Shown piece by piece: positions 7,623-57,019 of a stretch of DNA of 64,000 bases. The notes under the pieces are model-generated. The model saw only the letters and a program-made list of their open reading frames with translations, did not search any database and was not told the DNA's origin. The position numbers and the translations under genes were made by a program. The stretch spans positions 3,706 through 67,705 of the forward strand of contig CALYOH010000002.1 of the NCBI GenBank assembly GCA_945228905.1. The letters are read 5' to 3'. How positions within the stretch are numbered: position 1 is the stretch's first letter; each line of letters starts with the position of its first letter. The DNA is from an uncultured Bacillales bacterium. GTDB lineage: Bacteria > Bacillota_I > Bacilli_A > RF39 > UBA660.

Positions 7623-7919
7623 CTAGAATAGACGTGCGCCAGCGTTGGCGTTATCTTCTTCTGTTTTATTTAATATATTTGCAGCAGCACTAATACTTTC
7701 ACCTAAATCATTTAATAAGATTTTAAAAGCATTGAAATTATTAGCTTGTTCTTCATATGAAGCACTAAATTCATTAGCAGACATACCTTTCCATAAAGTC
7801 ATAAGACCATCAATATTAGATCTTAAACTATTTAATTCATTTTCTAGATATTCTGCATTAGCAACAGTATCTTTACCATTAGTGTTCATTGCAGCTGTGT
7901 CAGCATGTAAACCAGACAT
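7623..7919 (-). CDS. WXG100-family (EsxA-like) protein
   Basis: 98 aa with a central LWKGMSANEF (W-x-G). The start was placed at the second ATG to give proper SD spacing (AGGAGG-N8-ATG). Confidence 0.75.
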   Translation of the reverse strand: MSGLHADTAAMNTNGKDTVANAEYLENELNSLRSNIDGLMTLWKGMSANEFSASYEEQANNFNAFKILLNDLGESISAAANILNKTEEDNANAGARLF

Positions 7920-8002
7920 AATCATAACCTCCTATCTATAAAAATTATATCATAATTTGTAAAATTGCATACTCTTTACACTAAAAATTACATTGTTTTA
8001 CA

Positions 8003-8301: not shown

Positions 8302-9444
8302 CTATACATTAGTATCATTAGAATATTTATTAAACATTTCATCTAATATAGATTTATTACTATTTTGTTTTTGTTTTTCTCTTTCAATTATTGCTCTAAA
8401 AGGATTTCTAGAAGTATTACTATCAGTAGTTGTACTATCTGTCGTTGTTGTTGTATTTGTTTTACTATCACCTGTACTATTATTAGTATTAGTATTAGTT
8501 GTAGTATCAGTAGTAGTATTTGTATTATTTTCACTTTTAGCGTTTGGTATTTCAGTCTTAGTAGTATCTTCTAATTTAACTTTACAATTATTAGTAATTT
8601 TCTTTATATCCTTTGTCAAATCAATAGTTATATTATTCTTATTAGCAGCTTTCCATTTTTCAGAATCTATAAAGAAGTTTACAGCATTTTTAGAAGCTTC
8701 TTCATCAGTAACTTGACCAATAACACAGTCAACACTTGTTCCATCTTCTCTAGTAAATGTAATAGCATCCCCAACTTTACCAAATGATTTATCACAAGAG
8801 ATAACATATCTATTACCTAACATTGCATAGCCATCTGTGTTATATTTAAATTTTTCATGTTCAAATAATTCTTTTTCTTCATCAGTTAATTTTTCTTTAT
8901 CTACTTCTTTACAAGTTATCTTCTTAACTTCTGTCTTAATTTCAACAGAATCTTTTCCTTCAAGAATTTGTCTTAATTGTTCTAACTCATCATGAGTTAA
9001 CTCAGATAGAGCAGTTGTTCCTACAGTAGTAGTTGCTCCAGTACCTCCACCACCAGAGTAGCCGCCACCGCCGCCACCTCCTGAGTAGTAGCCACCTCCG
9101 CCACCAGAAGTTCCTCCACCACCGGAAGTTCCTCCACTAGTACTTGTTCTTTTCTGAACTTCATTTTGTTTTTCTTCATTTTTACCATATATTAACTGAT
9201 TTTGAAGAGAAGTATGTGAACTTACTACTGTAGATACAATCTTAGAAGCATTTTGTATTTTTATAGAACATGCTTCAATATTATTAGCAATTGCAGACTT
9301 TGCAGATGCAAAATCAAAACCATCTTCGCAATTTGTATCATATCCACTAACAGAACTTTCAATATTTGAAATTTCTTTAGCAACTGAATCTAATGTAGAT
9401 CCAGTTGATGTTACAGAATCACAATCTAGCATAAATAATGCCAT
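8302..9444 (-). CDS. WXG100-like N-domain / Gly-Tyr linker / unassigned beta-rich module / Thr-Asn-rich tail protein (paralog of 9456-10718 lacking the peptidase domain)
   Basis: The N-terminal about 90 aa are homologous to the 9456 protein (MALFMLDCDSVTS...GFDFASAKS). Linker GGTSGGGGTSGGGGGYYSGGGGGGGYSGGGG. Module KFKYNTDGYAMLGNRYVISCDKSFGKVGDAITFTREDGTSVDCVIGQVTD. C-terminus NTNTTTDTTTNTNTNNSTGDSKTNTTTTTDSTTTD. No signal peptide. Confidence 0.7.
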   Translation of the reverse strand: MALFMLDCDSVTSTGSTLDSVAKEISNIESSVSGYDTNCEDGFDFASAKSAIANNIEACSIKIQNASKIVSTVVSSHTSLQNQLIYGKNEEKQNEVQKRTSTSGGTSGGGGTSGGGGGYYSGGGGGGGYSGGGGTGATTTVGTTALSELTHDELEQLRQILEGKDSVEIKTEVKKITCKEVDKEKLTDEEKELFEHEKFKYNTDGYAMLGNRYVISCDKSFGKVGDAITFTREDGTSVDCVIGQVTDEEASKNAVNFFIDSEKWKAANKNNITIDLTKDIKKITNNCKVKLEDTTKTEIPNAKSENNTNTTTDTTTNTNTNNSTGDSKTNTTTTTDSTTTDSNTSRNPFRAIIEREKQKQNSNKSILDEMFNKYSNDTNV

Positions 9445-9455
9445 ATTCATTCCTC

Positions 9456-10718
9456 CTATACACTTACTGTTTTATCATTACCTTTATATCTTAAAACCCA
9501 TGTCCAATTATTTCCTGTATTTGAAACACTAATTTCATTACCAGATGAATCTCCATTAGAACCATCATAATTAGAATGAGCTCCAACGTTCTTACCATCA
9601 CCTACATACATTTCAGTATGACCATTTCTTAATAATACGTCTCCTGGTTGTAATTGAACTTTTCCAAAGTCATAACATTCAAATCCAACTTTAGTAAATG
9701 CTGCTCTCATATTACCTGTATAAGATGCTCCAGCAGCTTTAACAGGTACACCTGCAGCTTCATATGCACTTATTACCAGTGAAGAACAGTCATAATTTGG
9801 ATTGCCCCATCTTGTTTGTTGTGAATATCCATGACTATTATCATTAGCAATATTTATTGCCCAATCCATAGCAGATTGAACAGACTTATTAGAAGATCTT
9901 AATTTACCAATATTAACAATCTTTGAAATTCCTCCTGCTAAACCTAAAGTTATATTATTAGCATTATCTTTCTTCCATGTTTTTTCATCTCCAAAGAATG
10001 AAACCTTATTCTTGTCTTTAGCATCTTTAGTAATTTGACCTATAATACAATCAACTTTAGTTCCATCTTCTCTAACAAAAGTTATTCTATCTCCAACTTC
10101 TCCAAATGATTCATCACATGAAATAATATATCTATTATCAAGCATTGCATATCCATCTGAATTATATTTAAATTTTTCATCATCAAACAATTCTTGAGCT
10201 TCTTTAGTTAGCTTAGTCTTATCATATGGTATACACTCTACTTCTTTAACTTCTGTTTTTATTTCTTTAACAGTATCTATTAGTCTTAATTGAGTTGCTC
10301 CTGCTGTAGTAGTAGCTGCTGCAGTGACATAGCCACCGCCTCCGCCGCCACCAGAGTAGCCGCCGCCACCACCTGAGTAGTCGCCCCCTCCACCACCGGA
10401 AGTTCCACCTCCAGTACTTGTACTTTCTTGAGCTTTCCTTTGCTCTTCTTCTTTTTTACCATATATTAATTTATTTTGAAGACTAATATGAGAAGTAACT
10501 ACAGAATTAACTAATTTAGATGAGTTTTGTACTTTTGTGGAACAAGCCTCTAAATTAGATGCAATTATAGATTTTGCAGATGCAAAATCAAAACCATCCT
10601 CGCAACTTGTATCATATCCACTTACAGAACTCTCTACATTAGATAATTCCTTTGCAATAGCATCTAAACTACTAGCACCTGAAGTCACACTATCACAATC
10701 AAGCAAAAATAAAGCCAT
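9456..10718 (-). CDS. WXG100-like N-domain fused to an unassigned beta-rich module and a C-terminal NlpC/P60-clan (Amidase_5/CHAP-like) peptidoglycan hydrolase
   Basis: N-terminus MALFLLDCDSVTS...GFDFASAKS. Gly/Tyr linker. C-terminus SHGYSQQTRWGNPNYDCSSLV (catalytic Cys context)...GDVLLRNGHTEMYVG (His)...GAH. No signal peptide. SD AGGAGG upstream. Confidence 0.8.
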   Translation of the reverse strand: MALFLLDCDSVTSGASSLDAIAKELSNVESSVSGYDTSCEDGFDFASAKSIIASNLEACSTKVQNSSKLVNSVVTSHISLQNKLIYGKKEEEQRKAQESTSTGGGTSGGGGGDYSGGGGGYSGGGGGGGYVTAAATTTAGATQLRLIDTVKEIKTEVKEVECIPYDKTKLTKEAQELFDDEKFKYNSDGYAMLDNRYIISCDESFGEVGDRITFVREDGTKVDCIIGQITKDAKDKNKVSFFGDEKTWKKDNANNITLGLAGGISKIVNIGKLRSSNKSVQSAMDWAINIANDNSHGYSQQTRWGNPNYDCSSLVISAYEAAGVPVKAAGASYTGNMRAAFTKVGFECYDFGKVQLQPGDVLLRNGHTEMYVGDGKNVGAHSNYDGSNGDSSGNEISVSNTGNNWTWVLRYKGNDKTVSV

Positions 10719-10730
10719 ATTAATTACCTC

Positions 10731-11552
10731 CTACTTTGGATCCCATTGATCTAATCCATATTGTTCAACTAATTTTATAAGATTTTCTGTATAAGACAAA
10801 CTAGTTGCATAACCAGCTTCCCTAACCGCTTTACATGCTTCCTTATAGTCTTGAGCCTCAATTACAGCCCTATATCTATCATTTGTCAATAATACAGCGT
10901 GATCTTCAATAGAATCAGATAATGAATCATAATCTCTAAATTTTGCAGTTATTTGGACATAACTTCCATCAGCATTTTGTTCTGATGTTCTACATTCTTG
11001 TGTTTTTCCTGTCCAACTATCTCCAGCTTTAATACCAAACACATTATTTCCAATTGAATGTTTTCCCCATCCACTTTCTAGTATAGCTTGAGCTAAAGTT
11101 AATGAAGGTAAAACACCATATTTATTATAAGCTTCAACTGCACCTTCTGCTATCGAATTAATGAAGTCTAATTGATAACCAGATAAGTTTGTAGGATTTA
11201 AATAATCAGAAACAGCACCTGCTCTAATAACTTTACCATTTGTACCTTTTAATTCAAGAATAACATTTGAAGCACTTTTATCCCCTGCTTTATAAGCATT
11301 AGATACATCTATTAGATATTGATTAATAGTTGTAAAATTATCAGTCATTATAGCCATAGACTCATTCATAGCATTAAGTGCTTCTACACAACTATCTGCA
11401 CAAGGTCCCATAAATAATGTATCATTATCAATAATAGTTTTAACATCATTATACGAAACTTGAGCAGTATCAATACTTGCTTTTAATTTATTAGTTGTAG
11501 TAATAGCATCACTAAATATACCATAATCACTTACTGAATATTTTTCATTCAT
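10731..11552 (-). CDS. WXG/LXG-like helical N-domain fused to a GH73 N-acetylglucosaminidase
   Basis: The N-terminal about 100 aa (MNEKYSVSDYGIFSDAI...LFMGPCADSCVEAL...) form a helical hairpin with F-M-G at the turn. C-terminus LAQAILESGWGKHSIGNNVFGIK...GYATSLSYTENL carries the canonical GH73 motifs. No signal peptide. Confidence 0.8.
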   Translation of the reverse strand: MNEKYSVSDYGIFSDAITTTNKLKASIDTAQVSYNDVKTIIDNDTLFMGPCADSCVEALNAMNESMAIMTDNFTTINQYLIDVSNAYKAGDKSASNVILELKGTNGKVIRAGAVSDYLNPTNLSGYQLDFINSIAEGAVEAYNKYGVLPSLTLAQAILESGWGKHSIGNNVFGIKAGDSWTGKTQECRTSEQNADGSYVQITAKFRDYDSLSDSIEDHAVLLTNDRYRAVIEAQDYKEACKAVREAGYATSLSYTENLIKLVEQYGLDQWDPK

Positions 11553-11565
11553 CTAATCACACCTT

Positions 11566-12387
11566 TTAGGTATTGTATTTATTATAAATGTTACTTGCAT
11601 AACCCTCTCTTGTACTTGTATTAGCATCTGCAGATTTCTCATAAACATTATGGAATTTAGCAGCAGCTTGTGAAGCAGATGTAGCATTTTTCATATCACT
11701 AGATAAATCTGCTCCCATCTCTTGAATCATAAAATCAAGTTGCCCACCTAAACTATCTATATTTTCAGGACCTAAATAATCATATAAAGCAGCTTTTCTT
11801 GTATGATATGTCCATTGAGCAATACCAAATCCACGAGAATCATTTGCGAAATCTTCTCTAGAAATAGTACCATTCTTTATACCAGCAACATAATCAGCAT
11901 CTTCATAACCCATTCCATTTTGAACATTATCTGCTCTAAAATTAGATTCTTGTTGAAGATTACCCATTATACCAGCAGCTCCTTGTGGAGAAAAACCTTT
12001 ACTAACTAAGTAATTATAAATTTGTTCCTCATTACTGTTACCAGTTAAATTTCCACCTTCACCAACACGTAATTGAGTTCCATTAATTGATAACACTTTA
12101 TTAGCTGCAGCAGTATCACCACTTTTATATGCAGTAGCAACTTCAGCTAAATAATTACTTATAGTAGTGAAATTATCATTAATTGTACTCATTCCACTAT
12201 CTAATGAACTAACTGCTTCTACACAACTATCTGCACAAGGTCCCATAAACACTGCATCATTATCAATAATGCCTTTTACATCATTTACTGTAGTCTTTGC
12301 AGAATCAACACTGACCTTTAATTTATTAGTTGTTGATATAGCATCACTAAAAATACCATAATCACTTATTGAATAATTCTCATTCAT
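11566..12387 (-). CDS. WXG/LXG-like helical N-domain fused to a phage-tail-lysozyme-like (GNxxxES family) peptidoglycan hydrolase
   Basis: The N-terminus is paralogous to the 10731 protein (MNENYSISDYGIFSDAIS...VFMGPCADSCVEAV). C-terminus AAGIMGNLQQESNF...GFGIAQWTYHTRK...QLDFMIQEM matches the Phage_lysozyme2-type signature from memory. 1-nt TAATG overlap with the upstream gene. Confidence 0.7.
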   Translation of the reverse strand: MNENYSISDYGIFSDAISTTNKLKVSVDSAKTTVNDVKGIIDNDAVFMGPCADSCVEAVSSLDSGMSTINDNFTTISNYLAEVATAYKSGDTAAANKVLSINGTQLRVGEGGNLTGNSNEEQIYNYLVSKGFSPQGAAGIMGNLQQESNFRADNVQNGMGYEDADYVAGIKNGTISREDFANDSRGFGIAQWTYHTRKAALYDYLGPENIDSLGGQLDFMIQEMGADLSSDMKNATSASQAAAKFHNVYEKSADANTSTREGYASNIYNKYNT

Positions 12388-13256
12388 TATTTATCACCAT
12401 TATATCTAAGAACCCAAGTCCAACTATTACCTGTATTAGAAACTCCAACTTCTGAACCAGAAGAGTCTCCATCAACACCATCTTTATTTCCATGAGCTCC
12501 AACGTTTTTACCATCACCAATATACATTTCAGTGTGACCATCTCTAAGTAAAACATCTCCAGGTTGTAAATCTACACTACCAAAGTCATAACAATCAAAA
12601 CCTGTTTGAGTAAATGCACTTCTCATATTACCTGTATATGTAGCTCCATTTGTTTTTACCGGAATACCAGCTGCTTCATAAGCACTAATAACAAATGAAG
12701 AGCAGTCATAATTTGGATTACCCCATCTTGTTTGTTGTGAATATCCATGTGAATCATCTGCTGCTGTAGCCATGGCCCAATCAATAGCACCTTGTACACC
12801 CGCACTTGATCCCGCAGATTGAGTAACCTTTCCACTTGCATTAACACTTGGATTCATAGAAGAAGCCTCTAATTTAACACTAGTAACAGAACTTAAAGCC
12901 TGCTCTATTTGTCCTTTTAAATTACTAAGTTCTGATTCATACGTACTAATTTTAGATGAAAACTCACTAGTACTTTCTCCTGTAGCAGATGCAGTATTAT
13001 AATTAGATCTTGCTATATTTAAATTATCTTTTGTAGTTTTATATCGTTCATATAAGTCACATGCATTTGCAAATGAACTCATTTGCCCTTTTATTGCCCC
13101 AGAAAATTCAGAAGAAAAACTTGTAGCTTTAGATTCAAAGTTATCATGAGAATTTCCCTTCCAAGAGCTTGAAGTTTCACTAACTGCACTATCAAATTTT
13201 GATAAAGCTGAAGCAATAGAACTAGCATCAGAATTAACTGTACCACTACTAACCAT
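12387..13256 (-). CDS. WXG100/LXG-like N-domain (about 140 aa) fused to an NlpC/P60-clan (Amidase_5/CHAP-like) peptidoglycan hydrolase
   Basis: N-terminus SSWKGNSHDNFESKA (W-x-G) followed by a long helix. The C-terminal domain is highly similar to that of 9456-10718 (SHGYSQQTRWGNPNYDCSSFV...GHTEMYIG...GAH). Start set at ATG 13256 (AGGAGG-N7-ATG). No signal peptide. Confidence 0.8.
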   Translation of the reverse strand: MVSSGTVNSDASSIASALSKFDSAVSETSSSWKGNSHDNFESKATSFSSEFSGAIKGQMSSFANACDLYERYKTTKDNLNIARSNYNTASATGESTSEFSSKISTYESELSNLKGQIEQALSSVTSVKLEASSMNPSVNASGKVTQSAGSSAGVQGAIDWAMATAADDSHGYSQQTRWGNPNYDCSSFVISAYEAAGIPVKTNGATYTGNMRSAFTQTGFDCYDFGSVDLQPGDVLLRDGHTEMYIGDGKNVGAHGNKDGVDGDSSGSEVGVSNTGNSWTWVLRYNGDK

Positions 13257-13309
13257 ACACATGCCTCCTATTTTCATATACTATATAATCATTTTACCAT
13301 TTATATAAG

Positions 13310-30910: not shown

Positions 30911-32320
30911 ATAAAAAGAAAATTTTTCTTAATAACACTATTATGTACAGTACTATTTAGTGTATTAAATGTACATGCAGAAACCACATCATTCTTTGAA
31001 GCAGAGTATATAAGAGGTATTTATGAAAGTAAATATATGTACTCTAACAATACTATTTATTATCAAACAGCTAGATTCTTTAGAAAGTCTGATACTCATA
31101 TGTTTGCTTATTGTATTGAACCATTCACATTCTTTAATGAAGATGCATCTTATGAATCAACAATTACTCCAAACAATTTAACTAATGAACAAAAAGATAG
31201 AATATCTAAAATAGCTCACTTTGGATTCTATTATAAGAATCATACAGATGATTATTGGTATGCAGTAACTCAAATGATGATTTGGCAAGTTGCGGATACA
31301 GTTAATGGAGAAACATACTTTACTGATAAATTAAATGGTAATAGAGTAAATATTTATCAAAATGAAATAAATGAAATTAATAACTTAGTAGATAATTATA
31401 ATACTCTACCAAATACAAATAATAAAACTTATATATTTAAAGAAGGAGAAAATATATCTATCCCCGCAGGAGATATAGTAACTAACTATAAATCAAATGA
31501 TGAAAGAGTAAAAATAGAAGGAACAAATGTAGTAATAGATGACTTAAAAGAAGGTAATTATACATTTACATTAGAAAGAAATGAAGTAAATTATAATAGA
31601 CCAACTATCTTCTATCAATCTAATAATAGTCAAAATATAATGGAATCAGGAGATTTAGATCCAATTAAATCTACATTTAATATTAAAATAATAAAAACAG
31701 AAATTAATATTAATAAAATAGATTCAGATACACAAAGTATTATTCCATCAGGAGATGCCTCTCTAGATGGAGCAATCTACACTCTATATGATAGTAATAT
31801 GAATGAAATTAAAGACCTAACTATTATAAAAAATATATCTGATATAAAAGATCTAGATTTAGGAACATACTATATAAAAGAAAAAACTCCCGGTACAGGA
31901 TATAATCTAGATAATGAAACATATAAAATAGTATTAGATGAAAATAATACTAAAGTAGAATTAACATTAGAAAACAAAGTAATAAAAAAGAATATTACTA
32001 TTAAGAAACTATATGGAGATAATAATAAAATGAATAATGAAAAAAATATAGATTTTGAATTATATAATAGTAAAAATGAATTAATAAAAACTATTTCCAC
32101 AGATGAAAATGGAGAAGTTACTATTAATCTACCATATGGTGAATATAAACTAGTTCAATTAAATTCTACTAATGGTTATCAAAAAGTAGAACCATTTATC
32201 ATCAAAGTAACAAATAATGAAGATGAAACAATAGAATTAAAAGACTATAGAATACCAGTACCAGATACACATATTAGTATATGGATATATTTAATTAGAT
32301 TATTATTACAAATATGTTAA
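30911..32320 (+). CDS. Surface adhesin with candidate thioester (TQxxIW) domain and two SpaA/CnaB-type domains; apparent non-canonical start
   Basis: In frame upstream of the first ATG (31037) lies a signal peptide KRKFFLITLLCTVLFSVLNVHA|ETT, directly after AAGGAGGG. AYCIEP and AVTQMMIWQ are a candidate Cys/Gln thioester pair. DGAIYTLYD...GTYYIKEKTPGTGY and ENGEVTINLPYGEYKLVQ are prealbumin-fold repeats. The C-terminus is PVPDTH followed by a hydrophobic tail. Confidence 0.6.
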   Translation: MKRKFFLITLLCTVLFSVLNVHAETTSFFEAEYIRGIYESKYMYSNNTIYYQTARFFRKSDTHMFAYCIEPFTFFNEDASYESTITPNNLTNEQKDRISKIAHFGFYYKNHTDDYWYAVTQMMIWQVADTVNGETYFTDKLNGNRVNIYQNEINEINNLVDNYNTLPNTNNKTYIFKEGENISIPAGDIVTNYKSNDERVKIEGTNVVIDDLKEGNYTFTLERNEVNYNRPTIFYQSNNSQNIMESGDLDPIKSTFNIKIIKTEININKIDSDTQSIIPSGDASLDGAIYTLYDSNMNEIKDLTIIKNISDIKDLDLGTYYIKEKTPGTGYNLDNETYKIVLDENNTKVELTLENKVIKKNITIKKLYGDNNKMNNEKNIDFELYNSKNELIKTISTDENGEVTINLPYGEYKLVQLNSTNGYQKVEPFIIKVTNNEDETIELKDYRIPVPDTHISIWIYLIRLLLQIC

Positions 32321-32841
32321 AGAAACTGTTAATTGTATTAGTAGTAATAATAACTATATTATTAAATTTATCAATAATAAAAATAGATAATAAAAAAGAA
32401 ATATTATCTATAGATAAACCAATATATATAAATAATAATGATCAAAGTATAGGTTATTTAAAAATAGATAAAATTAATCTAAAAGAGAAATTATATAATA
32501 CTAATAGTAAAGAAAATAATATAGAACATAATGTTACTATATTAAAAGAATCAATATTACCAGATAAAAATAATAGTATAGTTTTTTTAGCAGCTCATTC
32601 AGGTATTGGTGATATAGCATATTTCGAAGAATTAGATGAATTAAATATTAATGATGAAATAGTACTAAATATAAATAATAAAACATATACATATATAGTA
32701 AAAGATTATTGGGAAGAAAAGAAAAATGGATATATTAATATTAATAAAGAGAATAAAAATCAATTAATATTAACTACTTGTAGTCCTAATAAAGATAATT
32801 ATCAATTAGTAATAAATTGCATAGAAAAAGAGTCTAAATAG
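32314..32841 (+). CDS. Small sortase-family transpeptidase (atypical)
   Basis: N-terminal TM helix, FLAAHSG (His) and LILTTCSP (TLxTC-like Cys). The start overlaps the adhesin stop by 7 nt. Confidence 0.65.
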   Translation: MLKKLLIVLVVIITILLNLSIIKIDNKKEILSIDKPIYINNNDQSIGYLKIDKINLKEKLYNTNSKENNIEHNVTILKESILPDKNNSIVFLAAHSGIGDIAYFEELDELNINDEIVLNINNKTYTYIVKDYWEEKKNGYININKENKNQLILTTCSPNKDNYQLVINCIEKESK

Positions 32842-47990: not shown

Positions 47991-48299
47991 CTATTTAACC
48001 AGCCTATCTCTTTGTTCAATAACACTGGTATCTACAGTTTCATTAGCAGCTGAGATATTCTCTTTAACTGCATTAACTAAATTGTCTGTATTAACGGCTT
48101 TTCCATATACATTTGAGAGTTCACTTCTAAATTCACCAATCTTACCTGAAAGTCCTTTTAAGTAATTTAAATATTCAAAATTACTTGGAACAGTCATTGC
48201 ACAATACTCTTGTGCACTAGATAAATGTGATAATGAATCCTCAACCATAGGTTTAATTTTAGATGAAATACCATCATTAGGATAAATTAATTTACTCAT
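47991..48299 (-). CDS. Small alpha-helical T7SS-associated protein (no W-x-G)
   Basis: 102 aa with helical heptad-like composition. 1-nt overlap with the upstream WXG-like gene. Family not recognised. Confidence 0.5.
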   Translation of the reverse strand: MSKLIYPNDGISSKIKPMVEDSLSHLSSAQEYCAMTVPSNFEYLNYLKGLSGKIGEFRSELSNVYGKAVNTDNLVNAVKENISAANETVDTSVIEQRDRLVK

Positions 48300-48583
48300 T
48301 ATTCTTCTCCTTGCTTAGCTTTTGTTACAGTAGTATCTATCATATTAGCACTCTCTGTAATTGCTTTAGAAAAGGACTTAATTCCATCACCAACATTCAT
48401 TAGCTCATTCTTATCAAGTAAAACCATATTTACATAGTCTTTTGCTCTTCCACCTGTCCATTCTTTAGTATCAGGTAAATTAACAAACTTATTAAACAAT
48501 TCGGTAATCTTTCCTTGATATTCTGCTGCTAATGAGTTGATAGCTGCCGCGTGATTACGCATTTCTTCAGTATTTATCTTCAT
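48299..48583 (-). CDS. WXG100-like protein
   Basis: 94 aa with a central KEWTGGRAKDY (W-x-G). No gap to the upstream gene. Confidence 0.65.
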   Translation of the reverse strand: MKINTEEMRNHAAAINSLAAEYQGKITELFNKFVNLPDTKEWTGGRAKDYVNMVLLDKNELMNVGDGIKSFSKAITESANMIDTTVTKAKQGEE

Positions 48584-48892
48584 CTAATCAGCCCCTATCT
48601 CAGCTATTTTATTATGGCATTTAATAATAGCTCTATCCACAGCTGGAATAACCGTATTTTTTATAAAATTAGCAGTTGTAGTTATATCTTCTCTAACATT
48701 CTTTACATTTGTACATAGTGTACTATCATTATCATCTAATGAATAACATTCATTCAATGTTCCAGAAAAGTCATCTAAACTACCTTTAGATAAAGTTAAT
48801 TCACTTACAATACTAGAAAGATTAGCTTTAACAGCATTATATCTAGAAATAGCATTTCTATATGAATTAATAGCTTCCTCTTTTGTAGCCAT
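48584..48892 (-). CDS. Small alpha-helical T7SS-associated protein (no W-x-G)
   Basis: 102 aa with a predicted helix-loop-helix. Located in the WXG array. Confidence 0.5.
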   Translation of the reverse strand: MATKEEAINSYRNAISRYNAVKANLSSIVSELTLSKGSLDDFSGTLNECYSLDDNDSTLCTNVKNVREDITTTANFIKNTVIPAVDRAIIKCHNKIAEIGAD

Positions 48893-48915
48893 AACTACAC
48901 CACCCTTTTATTATA

Positions 48916-49377
48916 TTATCCGATTTCAACTTTAGAAGCTGCTGATGCAACATCTTCAGCATCACTTGAAACAGCTTCAGATAATGAAGTATCTCCTGAT
49001 TGATATTTTTCATAAGCATCATCAAGTTCAGTATTCCATTTTTCAACTAATTTAACATATGCATCTAATAATGATTTAGTAGATGTAATGAATTCAGTCA
49101 TAGCTGTACCAGCTTGTCCTTTGAATGTTTGCTCTAAATCAGCTGAAGTATCATATGTATCAACGATTTCTTGAACGTTAGAAGCATATGTATTGATTGC
49201 AGATTTTAAAGCCTCAAAGTTACTAACTCCTGCAAATCCTCCATCCCAGATGTTTGCAACGAAAGATCCGATATTGTTAGCCAATCCACTAACAGCTCCC
49301 CATGCAGCATCTAAGAATGAACTAATTCTTTGTCCTACTGTTGACTTAACGTCACCAATTATACTTTGAATTCCCAT
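48916..49377 (-). CDS. Extended WXG100-like protein with Gly/Ala/Ser-rich N-terminal extension
   Basis: 153 aa. The N-terminal 50 aa contain AAWGAVSGLANNIGSFVANIWDGGFAG, followed by a helical hairpin with FKGQAGTAM at the turn. Confidence 0.5.
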   Translation of the reverse strand: MGIQSIIGDVKSTVGQRISSFLDAAWGAVSGLANNIGSFVANIWDGGFAGVSNFEALKSAINTYASNVQEIVDTYDTSADLEQTFKGQAGTAMTEFITSTKSLLDAYVKLVEKWNTELDDAYEKYQSGDTSLSEAVSSDAEDVASAASKVEIG

Positions 49378-49389
49378 TAATTTCTCCTC

Positions 49390-49701
49390 CTATCTCTTTT
49401 CAATTAAATCTTGATCGATTTCAGCTAGTCCTGCAAGAACCTTTTGGAACTCAGCAACAAGTCCTTCATATGCTGCATCTAATCCTTTACAAATTTCATC
49501 AACATCATGCTCCATATTAGACATAAAGTTATTAGCAGATTGTCCAACCCAACATGCATGAACTTCGTCTCTTAAAGTAGCAAGATTATTACGTAGTGCA
49601 TTTTTTGCAGTTACAACACAATCGTTATGAACGTGGTTTAATGTTGAAACCATATTACTTTGATCGTATCCAATTGTAGCACCTTCGATACCTAAAGCCA
49701 T
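49390..49701 (-). CDS. WXG100-family (EsxA-like) protein
   Basis: 103 aa with a central ACWVGQSANNF (W-x-G). Confidence 0.75.
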   Translation of the reverse strand: MALGIEGATIGYDQSNMVSTLNHVHNDCVVTAKNALRNNLATLRDEVHACWVGQSANNFMSNMEHDVDEICKGLDAAYEGLVAEFQKVLAGLAEIDQDLIEKR

Positions 49702-49712
49702 TAAATCACCTC

Positions 49713-50096
49713 CTACATATTTTCAATTTTACTGGCTTTATCTTTTGTATCCTCAGTAATAGAATCAATTAAGAACGCAATAGTTCTATCACCTGTTCTA
49801 ACCTTATTAATAACTGCAATAAGGTCATCTGAATATGAAACAATATTATCTTTTACAATAGAATAATTCTTTTTAAAATCTCTATATTTTGTCATAAGAG
49901 CAGAATACTCATCAGACTCATAACAATTCTTTAGAGAATCCATTTTAGCATCAATCTTTGAAAAAATATCAGTAACATCTTCAGATATAGTGAGAATATC
50001 CATAGCTAAAGTAGATAAATCTTCTTCGTTAATAGCTAACTCAACATCTTCATCAGCAACTAATCCGATACTTTCTTGCATATTAATATCCTCCAT
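49713..50096 (-). CDS. Acidic WXG100-sized helical protein lacking W-x-G (first gene of the array)
   Basis: 127 aa with the turn region NCYESDEYSAL in place of W-x-G. SD GGATGGAGGA upstream. Confidence 0.5.
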   Translation of the reverse strand: MEDINMQESIGLVADEDVELAINEEDLSTLAMDILTISEDVTDIFSKIDAKMDSLKNCYESDEYSALMTKYRDFKKNYSIVKDNIVSYSDDLIAVINKVRTGDRTIAFLIDSITEDTKDKASKIENM

Positions 50097-50251
50097 CCTA
50101 AGAATACTATAGTAAGTAACTTATCCTTACTAATTTAATAATACAACACTTTTTTTATTTTAATCAAGTAAAACGACCATTCTTTACACTTAACAAGTAA
50201 AAAATTAAAAAAAGGACCTATTATTATGCTATTATAATAATAGGTGATTAT

Positions 50252-51664
50252 ATGATTGAATACACAGTAATAGGAAATTTTAAATATAGGGGACAAGAAT
50301 ATCAAGTAATGATTGATGATGAAAAAAGATATTACTTTTTAAAAATCCATCCAGATGGTTCAGAAAGTTATATAGATATACATGAATATATAAGATTAAT
50401 AAATGAATTTAAGTATAAAGAAGAACCACTATTAATTGAAGATAATAGAAAGAAGAAAAAAAGAAAACTAACACCAAAAATCATAATAGCAGGTATAATA
50501 TTAACTTTATCCCTTTCGTTTGTATCTATAATGAACTCTATGGCTCCTACAATGGACCTTCATAGTCATACAAGTGACTATTCTAATACTTCTTCGTACA
50601 CAGTACAAATAGAAGAACAAGATAATGATAAAGCTCAAAAAGCCATAGATGAACTATATAGATATATAGAACAAGAAAACCAAAACTTTAAAGTAGATAC
50701 AAGAGTAGATGGTTGGAACTTAATAAAAATATATGATAATAGTGAATTAGATGATGTATTGGGCTATTCAAGAGAAGAAATTACATATAATGATATTATT
50801 AATGATATAAATAATAATCCTCATATGTCACAAAAATTCAAAAATTTATATATCAAATTAGCAAACAATCTAAGAGAACAATATCCAAATATGGATTTAA
50901 GAATATGGCATTATAATCTACAAACATTAAAAATAGTAGAATTATCAGAAATGGATATGCAATTAAAAGCAATGAGTGGAACTGCATGTGCCGTATATAG
51001 ACAAGATGAAAATACTATTTATACAGTAGAAGGATATGATTATGTTCAAGGTACTTGGGATTATCAAGTAATAATGCATGAAATGGGTCATCCAATTAGA
51101 AGTTTAGTAACACATATTGGTGAAAATCAAGTAAAAGCAAGATTCCAATCTTATTCTGGACATGGAACAGTTATAGGAGAAGCATTAAATTCCCTACTTA
51201 CACTAAGATCATATGATCCAAATGAAAAAGATGTAGCATATCAATTCCAAAGTAATATGGTTGAATTAATGGTTAATGAAATGGATAACTACACATATCA
51301 AGACTTTGTTGAACATAATCTAACTTATTTTGAGCAACAATTAAATGAATACAACGGAAATAATGATGCAGTAGAAATCATAGGACTAATTGAATTACAA
51401 TATAATGATTATCATAACAAAGACTTTGAAATAGATGAAGCACAATTCCATAAAGTATATGATTATATAGCAAATATGTATTATGGAAATCATCTAAATC
51501 CAAATATGTCTGCTGAAGAAGCTATTAAAGTTAGAGATACATTTATAGATAAATTAACATTTGATGTCCCAGAAGAATACAAAGTAAGTATAGAACATTT
51601 AAATGAATACTTTGAAACATACTGTAACTCAATAGGATTACAACTAAATGGATACTCAAGATAA
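50252..51664 (+). CDS. Single-pass membrane protein with extracytoplasmic HExxH (putative zinc metallopeptidase) domain
   Basis: A cytoplasmic N-domain of about 75 aa, RKKKKRKLTPK, then the TM helix IIIAGIILTLSLSFVSIM, which predicts N-in/C-out by the positive-inside rule. VIMHEMGHP with Glu candidates downstream (IGEN, VIGEALNS). Confidence 0.55.
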   Translation: MIEYTVIGNFKYRGQEYQVMIDDEKRYYFLKIHPDGSESYIDIHEYIRLINEFKYKEEPLLIEDNRKKKKRKLTPKIIIAGIILTLSLSFVSIMNSMAPTMDLHSHTSDYSNTSSYTVQIEEQDNDKAQKAIDELYRYIEQENQNFKVDTRVDGWNLIKIYDNSELDDVLGYSREEITYNDIINDINNNPHMSQKFKNLYIKLANNLREQYPNMDLRIWHYNLQTLKIVELSEMDMQLKAMSGTACAVYRQDENTIYTVEGYDYVQGTWDYQVIMHEMGHPIRSLVTHIGENQVKARFQSYSGHGTVIGEALNSLLTLRSYDPNEKDVAYQFQSNMVELMVNEMDNYTYQDFVEHNLTYFEQQLNEYNGNNDAVEIIGLIELQYNDYHNKDFEIDEAQFHKVYDYIANMYYGNHLNPNMSAEEAIKVRDTFIDKLTFDVPEEYKVSIEHLNEYFETYCNSIGLQLNGYSR

Positions 51665-52175
51665 TTTAATTCTTAAAATAGCAACCATAGATGAATTAAA
51701 AGAAAAATGGGATTATGAAATAAAAAATCATAAAGGGAATATTCATTATCTTCAAGCAGCAAATGAAGCAATAAGAGAAACTAGACATGGTAATAGAATA
51801 ACATATATAGCTAAAATAAATAATCAAATAATAAGTGATATAACAGTAATAATAAAAGAAAAAGGTATTCTAAGTGAATCTAAATATACAGAAGATTTAA
51901 TATCAAATATAAGAGTATTCTTATGCGATATAAGAACTATAGAAGATTATCAAGGAAAAGGATACTTATCTAAACTATATAAATATGTAGAAAATGATTT
52001 AAAAGAAAAAGGATATAAAGAAATATCCCTATCATATGACACAAATAATATAAAAAATAAAATAATGTATACTAAATGGAATTATACTAATTTCATAAGA
52101 AGTGAAACAAGAACAAGTAATAATACAACATATACATATGATTATTATTATAAAAAAATAGACATTTTAAATTAA
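51648..52175 (+). CDS. GNAT-family N-acetyltransferase
   Basis: YQGKGYLSKLYKYVE (Q/RxxGxG/A acetyl-CoA motif). 175 aa. Overlaps the upstream gene by 17 nt. Confidence 0.65.
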   Translation: MDTQDNLILKIATIDELKEKWDYEIKNHKGNIHYLQAANEAIRETRHGNRITYIAKINNQIISDITVIIKEKGILSESKYTEDLISNIRVFLCDIRTIEDYQGKGYLSKLYKYVENDLKEKGYKEISLSYDTNNIKNKIMYTKWNYTNFIRSETRTSNNTTYTYDYYYKKIDILN

Positions 52176-52192
52176 ATGTCTATTTTATTTTT
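52152..52192. terminator. Bidirectional terminator between the GNAT gene and esaB
   Basis: ATAGACAT-tttaaattaa-ATGTCTAT is flanked by an A-run and a T-run. The loop contains the GNAT stop codon. Confidence 0.55.
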
Positions 52193-52445
52193 AGAAAAAA
52201 ACTAATTGAGATCCATTTCTTATATTTGTATCTCTAATTAATTTTTCATAAGGATAAACCTCAGAAGAAAATTTATTACATAAAGCAACAGTATCACTAA
52301 TAGGATATAACCCATTTGTATCTTCATTAATCATTTTATTAATTAATCTACATACATCTCCTATCGCTCTATTAATTGGTAAATATACTTCATAAGTTTT
52401 TTCTATCTCTGGAACAAGAATAGTAACTAATACTTTATATTCCAT
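52191..52445 (-). CDS. esaB: YukD/EsaB-like ubiquitin-fold T7SS protein
   Basis: 84 aa. The pattern YEVYLPINRAIGDVCRLI...IRNGSQLVFF matches the beta-grasp EsaB/YukD layout. TAATG overlap with the essC stop. Confidence 0.6.
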   Translation of the reverse strand: MEYKVLVTILVPEIEKTYEVYLPINRAIGDVCRLINKMINEDTNGLYPISDTVALCNKFSSEVYPYEKLIRDTNIRNGSQLVFF

Positions 52446-55400
52446 TAATCATCACCATCCATCATAGTCTTAATTAATGTATAAGTAGAATCCTTAATCA
52501 AGTAAGCCATACCAGCGTAATTGTACTTCTTATCTTCTTCAGATAAGTCATTTGTAACTAATACGGATTGAGATTCAATTCCAGGACCTAACCACATACC
52601 TTTAGTAGTATCCATTGTATTATACCAAGGTTGTAGTTTTAATAACTTAAACTTCTTATAATCATCTATTAAGAAGAATATATTTTGTTTACAATTAGCT
52701 ATTCCATTAAACATACTATCAGCAAATTCTTGACCAACTTTATCTAATTTACCTTTTATAGAACCAGCTCCAAGAATAATATTAATTGCTAAAGGTTGAG
52801 TATCAGTACGAGACTTAACATCTTTATCTATAGCAGCAAATATAACTCTTAAATCATCTTGGAATAATTTAATGTCAAGAATTGGTTTTTCAAATGCACC
52901 AAGAACATCGATTACTCTAACTACTGTGTTAGGAATCTTAGTTAATAAATTAGCAAGTGCATATATGAAAGGCATACTAGATTTCATATCTTTTGTAATA
53001 ATTGGATATAGTTTTGTTTCACTAATATCAAGTTTAGCAATATCTTTCTCATAGAAATTATATCCAATAGGTAAATCTTTAATAGTAGTAATATACTTAA
53101 CAAGATCTTCACTAGTAATATTATCAGGTATAGTAGCAATCTTCTTAGCTCTAGTAGTGTAATTATTATTAAGTACCTCTGCTACTTGCTTTAAATATGC
53201 TAATTCATTTTCAGGAGTAGTAATCTTAGCAGTTTGGAATTCAGCATAAGAATCATCATCATTAGTAACTTTACAAATTCCTCTTCCATATAAATTACTT
53301 GGAAGTAATCCCTTACGACAATTAGTTAAGTTTCTATATTGAGACTCATCTTGTAGATTTAATACTATTAATCTATTAAAGTATTGTAATACTCTTGGTC
53401 TAAATGTATTTTGAGCAGATGCAGTTAAGATAAATATAATTCCATATCTTGGAGCATCCCTGAATAAAGCATTTAAACTATCTACTACTTTAGCTAAGAC
53501 TTCTCCAAATACATCAAATGCATTAATAACTAAACATATTACTGGTAATACTTCACCACTATGAGTATTATAGTATTCTAAAGATCCATTGAAATCTTGG
53601 AATAATACTTTACGTTTATTTAATTCATCCATTACTAATTGAATAACTCCACCCACTCGTTCCATATCATCTTGGAAAACAACTTCTCCAACATGTGGGA
53701 ATTTAGCAAATTTACGTAATGTTTCAGCTCCAAAATCAAGAATATAATAATTTATCTCTTGAGGAGTATGTTCTGTCATACTAGAGAATAGTATTGAAGA
53801 AACCAACATTTCTTTTCCTGATCCAGGTTGTCCAACAATTGCAATATTACCATCAGCTATATTAACTGTAAGAATATCTTGTTTTTGTTCTCTTGGTTCA
53901 TCATATTCACCAATAACAGTAGTAAAATCTAACTTTTTAGGTTGGAAACCATATCTCTTCTTAACTTCTGTTAAATAAATATCTTCAGGAATGTTAGGCA
54001 ACCATAATTGTTGTTTAACAAACTTTTCTTCTTGAGAAATATTACTAATATATTTAACTATATTAAGTAACTCTTCTCCTTCACTCTCTTCATTCTTCTT
54101 CTCTTCAACATTATCAAAATAATTAATTATTTTACCAATATTATTAATATATTGAACAGATTGATCAACAGTATGCTTAACTATATCAGAAGGATAATAC
54201 TTAGCACCTGCCCATGCAGATTGACCTAAGTTATAATATTCATCATTACCTACTTCCAAATAGAAAGCTCCAGTTTGTTTTAAATAAGCTGCATCAGGCT
54301 TCTTTAATATTTCATTTGAATCAGACTTATCTTGAACTCTTAAACAAACTTTAAATCTTGAGTTTGACCAGATTTGATCATTAACAACTCCAGAAGGTTT
54401 TTGAGTTGCTAGAATCAAGTGAACTCCTAAAGAACGTCCGATACGTGATGTAGAAATTAACTGTTCCATAAATTCAGGTTGTTGTTGTTTTAACTCAGCA
54501 AACTCATCACAAATAATAAGTAAGTGACTTAGAGGTATATCAACAGCACCTTTTCTATAATATTGTTGATACTTATAGATATCCATTTGACCTTCTTTTA
54601 ATTTCTCACGTGCATCATTAAATATAGATTGACGTCTTTTTAATTCTGATTCAATAGATGCAATAGATCTATTAATAGCAGATTTATCAAGGTTTGTAAT
54701 TGTACCAGCAAGATGTGGAAGTTTAATACCTAACTCATGGTTCTCAAAACTCATGGCAAGACCTCCACCCTTATAGTCGATAAGTACAAATTGTACTTCA
54801 TCAGGACTAAAGTTAACAGCTAAAGATAAAATATAAGTAACAATCCATTCTGATTTACCCGAACCAGTAGTACCAGCTACTAATCCATGTGGACCATATA
54901 CTTTTTCATGTATATCCATCTTAAAAGCTTCACCATTTTGATCAATACCAATTGGTACACTTAATGAATTAACCGGATTATTAGATTTCCATCTTTCCAA
55001 ACTATTTAATTGTTCTACTCTACCAACATTAAACATTTCAAGGAATGATAATGATTTAGGTAACTCATATTTTCCTTTTTCTAGTAAAATAGGAGTATTT
55101 GCTAATATTAAAGCAACATTATACATATTAATTGGTGTAGTAAAATCAACTTGAAATTCATTCTTATCATCAAGTTTTAACTTATTAGTAAATAAACCAG
55201 ATTTCTCTTTATTAACACTAATAAAAGTATGGGTTTGATCAGGTAAAGTACTTAATCTATCATTTTCAATTAATAAAGTAAATCCAAGATTTCTCTTATA
55301 ATTTAATATCTTTTTAACTAATGAAGTACTTCTAATAGACTCAATACTATCAGTAAACAATATAAAGTATGGTTTATATTTCTTATAAGGTTCCTCAGTG

Positions 55401-57019
55401 CCATCTTCTTTTCTACCATCATCTTCTAATTGTTCAGATTCAGCTTCATCTCTTCTAGCATCAAATATAGAATCAATATCAGCACTCATCTCATTAAATT
55501 CTTCTATATTAGTAGCAAAATATCTATTATTATGTTGATTATCCCAGTTATGAGGAGATACTTTTAAATACTCCCATTTTTCTGCATTTTCAGGTGTTGT
55601 AAACACAATAAATTTCAAATCAGAATAAGGATGATATGCCATTATTTGTAAAAAGATATTATCAATTAATCTATCACAATAAACTTCTTCTCCTACAACA
55701 GCAGTAAGATTATTTTCAACCAATGAGAATGAATATGGAGAAGCATCAATATATTTAGAATCATCTAAAACAGTCTTTAATGACTTCATTAATTCATCTT
55801 CATCATTAACAGAAAACTTATCTTCTGGATATCTAACTTTAATCTTGGACTTAACAGTACCGTTACCTAAACATACTCTTAGGAAATCTTCATCATCAAT
55901 ATTCTTTTTCCATAAATCATTTTTTCTTTTTAAAATAACCTCATTAACAACATCAAGGTTAGGATATTCTTCATATAATAATTCTCTTTGTTGTACTTTA
56001 ATATTACTTATCTCAGTCTTTTTCTTTTCAAGATACTTTTTATACTTAATAACACGTTTAATCTTAGCTTTCTTAAATTGTTTCTTTTTATAGAATTTTA
56101 AAATAAATGGCCACATTACTGTTCCAGATACTAAAGCAAAAACAGTAATCATAGAAGTAAAGAACCTCATTCCATCTACTTCTCCTTCAGCATAACCAAT
56201 AATAGTATCTAAAACAGAAAAGATAGACATAACCATCATTGTAAGTTGTGGTCCTAAAGTTAATAATATAGGTGTCTCTTCTCTTTGCTCTTCTGGAGGT
56301 GGTTCATCTATTCTTACTTCTTCTTCCTCTCTTTCAGAAATAAATCTTGGAGATTTTGAAAAATAAGACTTTTTATCATATAAAGGTAAATCTTCTTGTC
56401 CCTTAGGAGAAATAAAATTACCTAAATTAGATACAGCAGTAGTAATAAATGAATTATTATTTAAACTTATTCCTCCAGGAGCAGTAATAATAAATTGTTG
56501 TCCTAAACATATAATTTTTAATCCAAAGCAAAAGATATAATCACCAGAATAAATTCTACTATCTCCAACAGGTTTATTATTAAGATATACTTTATTACCT
56601 TCAGTAGTTACTTTCCAATAACCCTCTTGATTAAAAGTAAGTCTAAATTCTTCAGGTCCAATATATGAATTTCTAAAGCAAACATCACAATTTGGACCAG
56701 AACCAACAATAATTTCTTGCTTATTAGCTTTTACAATATTAGTATCTTCATAATAAGCAGGTGTCGCAACTAAATATAAATAAGCCCCTTCAATAGAAAA
56801 AACAAAAATAGAATCACTTTTAAGTACAGGTTTATCAACTTCTTGATTACCCTTCATTATTCTTACTTCTTCAGCAGGTTTAATTCTCCACTCTCCGTCT
56901 ACCCCTTCAATACTCGCAAGCAACTTATTTTCAGTAAGTGGAATTGGATATACGCCCATTACTTTTGATGGTAAAAATATTTTTTTAAAAAAGTTGTTAA
57001 AAAAGACATTTACTATCAC
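52445..57019 (-). CDS. essC: Type VII secretion FtsK/SpoIIIE-family ATPase EssC
   Basis: 1524 aa. Two N-terminal FHA-like modules, two TM helices and three P-loop domains. D1 has GTTGSGKSE plus LLIICDEFAEL. D2 has GQPGSGKE, a degenerate Walker A. D3 is further degenerate. Apparent GTG start at 57019 after AGGGTGGGA. Confidence 0.9.
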   Translation of the reverse strand: MIVNVFFNNFFKKIFLPSKVMGVYPIPLTENKLLASIEGVDGEWRIKPAEEVRIMKGNQEVDKPVLKSDSIFVFSIEGAYLYLVATPAYYEDTNIVKANKQEIIVGSGPNCDVCFRNSYIGPEEFRLTFNQEGYWKVTTEGNKVYLNNKPVGDSRIYSGDYIFCFGLKIICLGQQFIITAPGGISLNNNSFITTAVSNLGNFISPKGQEDLPLYDKKSYFSKSPRFISEREEEEVRIDEPPPEEQREETPILLTLGPQLTMMVMSIFSVLDTIIGYAEGEVDGMRFFTSMITVFALVSGTVMWPFILKFYKKKQFKKAKIKRVIKYKKYLEKKKTEISNIKVQQRELLYEEYPNLDVVNEVILKRKNDLWKKNIDDEDFLRVCLGNGTVKSKIKVRYPEDKFSVNDEDELMKSLKTVLDDSKYIDASPYSFSLVENNLTAVVGEEVYCDRLIDNIFLQIMAYHPYSDLKFIVFTTPENAEKWEYLKVSPHNWDNQHNNRYFATNIEEFNEMSADIDSIFDARRDEAESEQLEDDGRKEDGTEEPYKKYKPYFILFTDSIESIRSTSLVKKILNYKRNLGFTLLIENDRLSTLPDQTHTFISVNKEKSGLFTNKLKLDDKNEFQVDFTTPINMYNVALILANTPILLEKGKYELPKSLSFLEMFNVGRVEQLNSLERWKSNNPVNSLSVPIGIDQNGEAFKMDIHEKVYGPHGLVAGTTGSGKSEWIVTYILSLAVNFSPDEVQFVLIDYKGGGLAMSFENHELGIKLPHLAGTITNLDKSAINRSIASIESELKRRQSIFNDAREKLKEGQMDIYKYQQYYRKGAVDIPLSHLLIICDEFAELKQQQPEFMEQLISTSRIGRSLGVHLILATQKPSGVVNDQIWSNSRFKVCLRVQDKSDSNEILKKPDAAYLKQTGAFYLEVGNDEYYNLGQSAWAGAKYYPSDIVKHTVDQSVQYINNIGKIINYFDNVEEKKNEESEGEELLNIVKYISNISQEEKFVKQQLWLPNIPEDIYLTEVKKRYGFQPKKLDFTTVIGEYDEPREQKQDILTVNIADGNIAIVGQPGSGKEMLVSSILFSSMTEHTPQEINYYILDFGAETLRKFAKFPHVGEVVFQDDMERVGGVIQLVMDELNKRKVLFQDFNGSLEYYNTHSGEVLPVICLVINAFDVFGEVLAKVVDSLNALFRDAPRYGIIFILTASAQNTFRPRVLQYFNRLIVLNLQDESQYRNLTNCRKGLLPSNLYGRGICKVTNDDDSYAEFQTAKITTPENELAYLKQVAEVLNNNYTTRAKKIATIPDNITSEDLVKYITTIKDLPIGYNFYEKDIAKLDISETKLYPIITKDMKSSMPFIYALANLLTKIPNTVVRVIDVLGAFEKPILDIKLFQDDLRVIFAAIDKDVKSRTDTQPLAINIILGAGSIKGKLDKVGQEFADSMFNGIANCKQNIFFLIDDYKKFKLLKLQPWYNTMDTTKGMWLGPGIESQSVLVTNDLSEEDKKYNYAGMAYLIKDSTYTLIKTMMDGDD

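Follow-up and report, generated by a model that had tools for sequence, protein, structure and literature searches.

The stretch of DNA analysed here, referred to as the window, comprises 64,000 nucleotides from an uncultured Bacillales bacterium (GenBank assembly GCA_945228905.1, contig CALYOH010000002.1, positions 3,706 to 67,705) and contains a type VII secretion system (T7SS) locus that encodes a membrane-anchored, zincin-like protein of 470 amino acids, hereafter MP. The MP gene (50252-51664, plus strand), defined from the open reading frame list and from homologue searches, is followed on the same strand by a gene for a GNAT acetyltransferase of 175 residues (51648-52175), and the two lie between an array of six small WXG100/LXG-like genes (47991-50096, minus strand) and the pair esaB-essC on the minus strand. 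This two-gene unit between the WXG array and esaB/essC, including the 17-nt overlap of the 470-aa and 175-aa reading frames (51648-51664), had been described in an earlier reading made from the letters alone (the sequence-only reading), and the open reading frame coordinates agree with that description. The essC gene (52445-57019, minus strand) encodes a protein of 1524 residues that scores 944 bits against the TIGR03928 model (cut-off 778), matches FtsK_SpoIIIE, has a weak FHA match, and represents a lineage designated EssC1. The esaB/yukD-like gene (52191-52445, minus strand; 84 residues) has a weak match to the YukD Pfam family (E = 0.19) and stands directly after essC in all loci compared. 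The six array products show weak matches to the WXG100, LXG, and ESAT6_2 families, and homologues of the array are found in nearly all loci where MP accompanies essC. One of the six matches the pore-forming ESAT-6 family NF035934 weakly (E = 4e-6), and a Pfam scan of the six small proteins reveals no recognisable toxin domain.

MP contains a single hydrophobic window at residues 77-95 (mean Kyte-Doolittle value 2.2), which is preceded by eight Lys or Arg residues within 15 positions and followed by a net-negative stretch. Because of this charge distribution, MP is predicted to cross the membrane once with its N-terminus inside and its C-terminus outside (N-in/C-out), in agreement with the small cytoplasmic domain, basic patch, and single transmembrane (TM) helix proposed in the sequence-only reading. 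The Lys/Arg patch (residues 65-76) and the TM helix are encoded at 50444-50536 on the plus strand. The N-in/C-out pattern is kept in 21 of the 24 aligned homologues, the exceptions being two truncated proteins with short N-termini and one fragment that has no TM segment. The cytoplasmic N-domain (approximately residues 1-55; 50252-50416, plus strand) is modelled by AlphaFold2 as four β-strands and one helix (pLDDT 73-85), its conserved residues are Y17, D22, F29, and Y40, and a word-indexed search with residues 1-100 returns close orthologues only. In some members (from loci L001, L003, L058, and L060, together with P0048 and P0062), the TM segment ends in a lipobox-like L-x-G-C motif, and the MP of the window has no Cys at this position. 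Processing of the lipobox-bearing members, if it occurs, would leave a lipid-anchored ectodomain that is detached from the N-domain.

The region outside the membrane carries the sequence QVIMHEMGHP, in which HEMGH corresponds to residues 276-280 (51077-51091, plus strand). H276 and H280 are predicted zinc ligands, E277 is the predicted catalytic base, and E310 (51179-51181, plus strand), located in an EALNS motif 30 residues past H280, is the candidate third ligand. Homologues of MP fall into 62 clusters when grouped at 90% identity, and at the 50% level there are 289 representatives (E <= 0.001). In an alignment of 24 homologues with identities down to 29%, H276, E277, H280, E310, a YQxQSN block, and a DVP block are all invariant, which is in line with the earlier identification of VIMHEMGHP with candidate downstream, gluzincin-like Glu residues. 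When 42 representatives with identities down to approximately 20% are compared, N222, H276, E277, H280, and E310 are, besides the initiator Met, the only residues that never vary, and Y330 is at least 90% conserved among diverse homologues. Since this gluzincin signature is kept together with its catalytic Glu, MP does not look like a pseudo-enzyme, and a metal site is probable on the basis of the conserved residues.

No Pfam, NCBIfam, PHROGs, or PADLOC model reaches the 470-aa protein. Fifteen of the 42 relatives match PF18818 (MPTase-PolyVal, a zincin-like metallopeptidase family) at E <= 0.1, and one of them (P0084) exceeds the gathering cut-off, with 28.7 bits against 27.5; the match covers the HExxH region. 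The protein of the window itself shows no PF18818 match in the Pfam scan, and the relation as judged from these profiles is one of remote kinship, not membership. The same scan yields no match to peptidase family S8 (subtilisin/mycosin), and a sequence-profile search for solved relatives of MP returns chance matches only. The family is thus described by no Pfam or NCBIfam model, has no solved relative, and is considered a new zincin family.

The AlphaFold2 model of the ectodomain (residues 122-470; 50615-51661, plus strand) has a pLDDT of 94.2 and a pTM of 0.92. Its elements follow in the order of strands, the HExxH helix (269-283), a β-hairpin, a helix that contains E310 (306-321), and a helical C-terminal half, and in the model this is the order of a zincin/gluzincin core. 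The weak Foldseek matches of the ectodomain are to the collagenases ColG and ColH (M9) and to peptidases of families M34 and M13 (PepO), with E = 0.07-0.3 and TM-scores of approximately 0.2, and a search of BFVD gives weak PolyVal- or IrrE-like matches only. The structure prediction and fold search that the sequence-only reading had proposed provide a confident zincin-like model and no significant structural neighbour. Taken with the conserved residues, the model makes it quite probable that MP belongs to a new zincin family and is a zinc metallopeptidase that faces outward.

A scan of species genomes for MP homologues identified 39 loci. Full-length homologues that bear the N-domain occur in approximately 30 species, represented by metagenome-assembled genomes (MAGs) labelled 'Bacilli', 'Mycoplasmatota', and 'Erysipelotrichaceae', and 27 of 28 of them adjoin essC with gaps of 19-800 nt; the association with essC that the sequence-only reading had wished to see examined is therefore close. 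Three gene orders are found. In order A, which is that of the window and of loci L001, L006, L009, and L065, the WXG array (minus strand), MP (plus strand), an optional GNAT gene, and esaB-essC (minus strand) follow one another, with MP and essC convergent. In order B (15 loci), MP is divergent from essC and shares approximately 115-180 nt with it, and in order C (11 loci), MP, essC, esaB, and the WXG genes run in one direction with gaps of 19-134 nt, such that MP and essC form a single operon. The MP-essC module is present in at least four chromosomal contexts: between secG/rnr and proS/eno; beside nusG-secE; between genes for an M14 peptidase, a spermidine synthase, and a tRNA synthetase; and beside an amidase gene and rplK/rplA. 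On a maximum-likelihood tree of MP, the gene orders require nine changes in all, which indicates that the adjacency of MP and essC has survived repeated rearrangement. The linkage is thus conserved beyond what a single ancestral gene order would leave.

The specificity of this association was evaluated in a sample of 301 genomes of the order, 143-144 of which contain essC. EssC identities in the sample are bimodal: seven genomes have an EssC with at least 46% identity to that of the window, which defines the EssC1 type, and all others are at or below 42%. Six of these seven EssC1-type genomes have an adjacent MP gene, and the EssC proteins encoded beside MP are 46-90% identical to the EssC of the window. 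A strong full-length MP homologue is present in 8 of the 301 genomes and lies within 3 kb of essC in all eight; by our own estimate, a random position would meet essC in approximately 1% of cases per genome, assuming a 10-kb target and a 1.2-Mb genome. Beyond the EssC1-type genomes, two (G224 and G280) carry a divergent MP copy 3 kb from an essC of the 41% type. Three sampled genomes of the same genus have essC of the EssC2 type only and no MP gene.

The T7SSb is thought to need the membrane proteins EssA, EssB, and EsaA. In the source genome (1.56 Mb, 93.6% complete), the models PF10140, PF10661, and TIGR03929 for EssB, EssA, and EsaA find no match anywhere, and the Bacillus subtilis control was matched. 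MP thus travels with one lineage of a stripped-down T7SS and is for this reason probably an accessory part of it; as read from sequence comparisons, a subtype-specific accessory role in a reduced T7SS is the interpretation towards which we lean.

A number of observations weigh against this interpretation. Approximately 135 of the 143-144 essC-bearing genomes of the order have no MP, and the same holds for the second essC locus of the source genome. One EssC1-type locus (L057, in genome G214) has no MP, and one full-length, N-domain-bearing homologue (at L033) is the only one of its kind found away from essC. Gene linkage among related genomes is also not fully independent evidence. A profile of residues 1-70 matches, in addition to MP, zincin paralogues of approximately 700-880 residues that are encoded away from essC, and essC is absent from 12 of the 28 genomes in which the N-domain is matched. 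In Lachnospiraceae and Oscillospiraceae, there are homologues without the N-domain, with a plain signal anchor at the start, that are also remote from essC; these Clostridia copies are nested at least three times inside T7SS-linked Bacilli clades on the MP tree, and five of the eight genomes that carry them have no essC. A paralogue of MP lies in the source genome itself on contig C98 (636-2201) between ssb and uppP, outside any T7SS locus. Regarding the assignment as a peptidase, the MP of the window reaches no Pfam family (best, Reprolysin_5 at E = 0.049), and its ectodomain has no significant Foldseek neighbour in the PDB or BFVD (best E = 0.06-0.08).

These exceptions define the scope of the association. 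MP is not present wherever a T7SS is present; it is missing from most essC loci of the order and yet accompanies EssC1, which argues that it is a lineage signature, together with the six-gene array, and not a universal core part. The N-domain is carried by all T7SS-linked copies and is absent from all Clostridia copies. However, since it also occurs on the larger zincin paralogues and in essC-less genomes (12 of the 28 matched), it is not a T7SS-specific docking module, and that candidate function was rejected. The nested position of the N-domain-less copies in the tree indicates at least three transfers into Clostridia, and because most of the recipient genomes examined (five of eight) have no essC, the ectodomain has a function that needs no T7SS.

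Several loci that differ from the common arrangement were inspected individually. In L057 (G214:C3:881000-900900), EssC1, esaB, and the small-gene array are present, and a gene for a D-Ala-D-Ala carboxypeptidase-like protein stands upstream of essC in the place of MP. The homologue in L033 is flanked by a gene for an M23 (LytM-like) peptidase and by one with a C39/C70-like cysteine peptidase motif (6780-7568 and 11367-12506), which hints at a cell-wall-related neighbourhood. Two copies in Lachnospiraceae MAGs (L007:5508-6746 and L008:10004-11173) have ectodomains that are 62-69% identical to that of the window and are its sister on the tree. They are nearer to the MP of the window than most T7SS-linked orthologues are, a signal anchor replaces their N-domain, and their genomes contain no essC, which suggests recent horizontal transfer, with mis-binning as the alternative. 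The C98 paralogue is split by one TAA stop into a part of 149 residues, comprising an N-domain and a TM segment that ends in a lipobox-like LTGCG, and an ectodomain of 344 residues with the motif HEIIGH; possible explanations are a pseudogene, a sequencing error, or a version encoded by two genes. The second T7SS locus of the source genome (contig C14, 7517-12896) encodes an EssC 39% identical to that of the window, an EsaB-like protein, and two small proteins (107 and 73 residues), with no other recognisable partner in the locus, and the essC loci of the sampled genomes of the same genus are orthologues of this type. A third essC-like gene (contig C138, 1833-2688) is cut by the contig end and is preceded by genes for two small helical proteins (134 and 135 residues).

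The observations can be accommodated in the following scheme. The MP clade would be a conserved, subtype-specific accessory of a reduced, T7SSb-like module found in uncultured Bacilli of the gut and rumen that have small genomes. Besides MP, this module would comprise an EsaB-like protein, six small WXG-like proteins, and an EssC of a single lineage, and it would operate without EssA, EssB, and EsaA. In the most likely mode of action, MP would be co-expressed with essC and inserted in the membrane, its active site lying immediately outside, where H276, H280, and E310 would bind zinc and E277 would act as the catalytic base. At this position, it may cleave proteins that the T7SS exports, in order to mature, release, or turn them over, or it may cut proteins of the envelope where secretion takes place, and it could then be a functional counterpart of MycP in the T7SSa or of the wall hydrolase EssH recruited in S. 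aureus. The analysis shows the motif, the topology, the family, and the linkage to essC with its restriction to one EssC lineage, whereas catalytic activity, the substrate, and any physical contact with EssC are inferred. A specific role in the processing of exported T7 proteins is nevertheless doubtful at present.

Other explanations of the gene linkage were considered along with this one. MP might have no T7SS function and be syntenic with essC by chance, either as a surface or housekeeping metallopeptidase of general purpose or as a membrane protein involved in signalling. The family does occur without a T7SS in Blautia, Dorea, Ruminococcus, and Oscillospiraceae, the order contains paralogues away from essC, 12 of the 28 genomes with the N-domain are essC-less, and there are exceptions in both directions, with EssC1 but no MP in G214 and MP but no nearby essC at L033. 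However, an adjacency with short gaps that outlasts at least 4-5 changes of gene order and at least four changes of chromosomal context, and that takes the form of an operon with essC in order C, speaks against an unrelated neighbour, as does the presence of essC within 3 kb in 8 of 8 genomes with a strong MP when approximately 1% is estimated by chance; we therefore regard a chance neighbour as unlikely. A second possibility is that MP protects the producer, in that it would degrade membrane- or wall-active proteins of its own T7SS or of competitors at the cell surface in the manner of a transferable immunity factor. Protease-like self-immunity has precedents in the nisin-resistance protease NSR and in the Abi/CPBP proteins of class II bacteriocin loci. 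The strict linkage to one EssC lineage and its six-gene array, one product of which is weakly similar to NF035934, would be consistent with such a role, and the repeated transfer of the ectodomain into Clostridia, most of which have no essC, resembles the spread of orphan immunity genes. In contrast to typical T7SS immunity genes, MP is single-copy, well conserved, and located beside essC rather than beside variable toxin genes; the six small proteins have no recognisable toxin domain; and the paralogues in essC-less genomes suggest a more general surface function. Self-protection is therefore considered quite unlikely.

The sequence-only reading had also raised the idea that MP replaces a missing structural component. 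In this case, MP would be a non-catalytic substitute for EssB or EsaA, in which the membrane segment and the ectodomain serve as a scaffold and the zincin fold is retained as a structural module only. The topology, a single pass with a large outside domain, is EssB-like, and EssA, EssB, and EsaA are undetectable in the genome. The 470-aa protein, however, matches none of the EssB (YukC), EssA, and EsaA models, and its cytoplasmic part of approximately 55 residues contains no pseudokinase. Throughout the family, neither the catalytic Glu nor any of the predicted metal ligands varies, which is unlike a pseudo-enzyme and unexpected for a purely structural protein. The idea is further weakened by the finding that most essC loci of the order are without EssA, EssB, EsaA, and MP alike: approximately 135 other essC-bearing genomes, and the second essC locus of the source genome, have none of these beside essC, and such a scaffold therefore seems not to be required. 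A purely structural role is accordingly judged very unlikely.

The accessory reading can be compared with the known T7SS subtypes. Besides T7SSa and T7SSb, the subtypes T7SSc-j have been described (Garrett, Higginson and Palmer 2024, PMC11217815), and no membrane metallopeptidase is found among the ten subtypes T7SSa-j (PMC11217815). The statement in the sequence-only reading that no dedicated protease is known for the T7SSb agrees with two published accounts (PMC11217815, PMC13059805), and our literature searches revealed no metallopeptidase described in T7SSb-like loci. The module shares with subtypes b-j the near-universal components TsxA (WXG100), TsxB (YukD-like), and TsxC (EssC), and its EssC carries an FHA region as in the T7SSb, but it is without the kinase, phosphatase, FHA, EssB, EsaA, and EssA partners of those subtypes. 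Additionally, it resides in uncultured Bacilli, which are outside the RefSeq-based survey of PMC11217815.

Two envelope enzymes of type VII systems are known, MycP (T7SSa) and EssH (S. aureus T7SSb); MP would at most act in a similar way and is homologous to neither. As predicted, MP resembles MycP of the T7SSa (ESX) systems in being a membrane-anchored protease with the active site outside, and both are encoded in and conserved with a T7SS locus. MycP processes the substrate EspB and stabilises the machine, and the role of this protease in mycobacteria is still debated. The two proteins show no homology: MycP is a serine protease with the S8 subtilisin fold, an Asp-His-Ser triad, and a C-terminal anchor, whereas MP has an HExxH zincin domain behind an N-terminal cytoplasmic domain and anchor, and the host systems differ as well (a T7SSa and a reduced, T7SSb-like system, respectively). 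The closest analogy within the T7SSb to an extracytoplasmic hydrolytic enzyme, as predicted for MP, is EssH, a CHAP peptidoglycan hydrolase recruited by the T7SSb of S. aureus that is required for passage of the machine and its substrates through the envelope (PMC13059805). EssH is a Sec-secreted cysteine peptidase/amidase that acts on peptidoglycan and is not membrane-anchored, whereas MP has a different fold and belongs to a different catalytic class. At the level of the fold, the HExxH zincin core is common to the MP family and the MPTase-PolyVal (PF18818) domains. The latter, which we take to be the peptidase domains of polyvalent proteins of phages and conjugative elements such as ArdC, are cytoplasmic or injected modules of approximately 125 residues, whereas the core of MP lies inside a mostly helical extracytoplasmic domain of 350 residues behind a TM anchor. 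The gluzincins of families M9 (clostridial collagenase), M34, and M13 (PepO) have an HExxH motif with a downstream Glu on the next helix, as predicted in MP; the spacing in ColG, which we take to be 28 residues, is close to the 30 residues of MP. However, the fold matches of these peptidases to MP are not significant, sequence profiles give no match, and the accessory helices are different.

The wider significance of the module depends on how far the accessory reading can be extended. Across a large clade of gut and rumen Bacilli with small genomes, essC operates with hardly any partner genes, and one lineage of this clade appears to have recruited a membrane zincin. If the zincin is needed for secretion or processing, the combination would represent a new T7SS subtype, a convergent recruitment of a surface protease to type VII secretion, and a minimal system for studying which components other than EssC are needed to cross the Gram-positive envelope. 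In its strongest form, the proposal is that EssC1, EsaB, the six WXG proteins, and the membrane zincin constitute an eleventh subtype in which MP is the sole membrane partner of the ATPase, is required for secretion or maturation, and is a convergent Firmicute counterpart of MycP; we regard this form as possible but tentative, and on balance not the expected outcome. The N-domain-less ectodomain is also carried by cultured bacteria, among them Blautia luti, Dorea ammoniilytica, and Ruminococcus sp. AM36-2AA; the first two in particular make its biochemistry accessible, whereas testing of the T7SS role is limited because all T7SS-linked carriers are uncultured.

As a substrate of MP, the sequence-only reading had proposed the hydrolase fusions encoded at 8302-10718 in the window, the Gly-rich linkers of which would be clipped. 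No homologue of these fusions is found in any of the retrieved MP loci, and the WXG partners of the operon point to the EssC2-like type, such that a link between MP and the hydrolase fusions at 8302-13277 was rejected. The hydrolase operon ends in two small WXG genes (w99 and w100; 7309-7925), which are similar, with 25-30% identity and E = 1e-6 to 1e-8, to genes located immediately after an EssC2-like essC-esaB pair of another genome (L055:12392-12913, genome G037); because of this resemblance, there is a hint that the hydrolase operon may be served by the other T7SS type. The six small proteins that travel with MP would be better candidate substrates than the hydrolase fusions.

The 175-aa product of the downstream gene scores 32.9 bits against Pfam Acetyltransf_1 (cut-off 20.7; E = 8e-8), and its assignment to the GNAT family in the sequence-only reading is therefore upheld. 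It reaches no specific NCBIfam subfamily, and its nearest solved relative is found at E = 0.009 only. The gene is kept, with the same 17-nt overlap, where MP is at least 49% identical (clade A: L006, L009, L065, and several metagenome contigs), and it is absent from the L001 lineage, in which 30 nt separate the MP gene from esaB, and from every order-B and order-C locus. More distant relatives, at 40% identity or less, stand among unrelated genes. The GNAT gene is thus a sub-clade acquisition, possibly functional in that sub-clade, and no part of the conserved module; its product would be a cytoplasmic acetyltransferase whose translation is coupled to that of the peptidase gene. The N-terminal acetylation of mycobacterial ESAT-6 provides a precedent for such a role. 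Of the two new accessory components proposed for this T7SS in the sequence-only reading, the 470-aa protein retains its candidacy through a linkage to essC that persists through rearrangements, whereas the GNAT, confined to one sub-clade, does not.

Upstream of the MP gene, a perfect 12-bp inverted repeat (50216-50245, plus strand) is present, in which ACCTATTATTAT (50216-50227) pairs with ATAATAATAGGT (50234-50245). On folding, a stem of 13 bp with a loop of 4 nt is obtained (-13 to -15 kcal/mol; z = -3.1 to -3.3 relative to shuffled sequences), and the full pattern occurs once in the window, where none is expected. The right arm covers AGGT of the AGGTGA Shine-Dalgarno (SD) sequence (50242-50247), just as the sequence-only reading had it when it described a hairpin that half buries the SD of the 470-aa gene. 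A role as a conserved translational regulator was rejected, since the leaders of L006, L009, and L001 fold no better than shuffled sequences. The left arm is missing in L009 and L001, and the closest orthologous leader is that of L006; the hairpin is specific to the source genome. When four upstream regions are aligned, conservation in every one of them is confined to the start codon and a single block, TGnTAxxAT with AGGTGA after it (50227-50247, plus strand). TGnTAxxAT resembles an extended -10 box and may be part of a promoter, although a two-hexamer promoter scan does not list it. If it is such a box, the left arm of the hairpin, which lies upstream of it, may not be transcribed.

Elsewhere in the window, a plus-strand pair of genes for products of 427 and 175 residues (31037-32841) was considered as a paralogous unit of the MP and GNAT genes and was rejected as unrelated. 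The first gene encodes a Cna-B-like, pilin-type surface protein and the second, with an overlap of 7 nt, a sortase; the open reading frames are merely similar in size.

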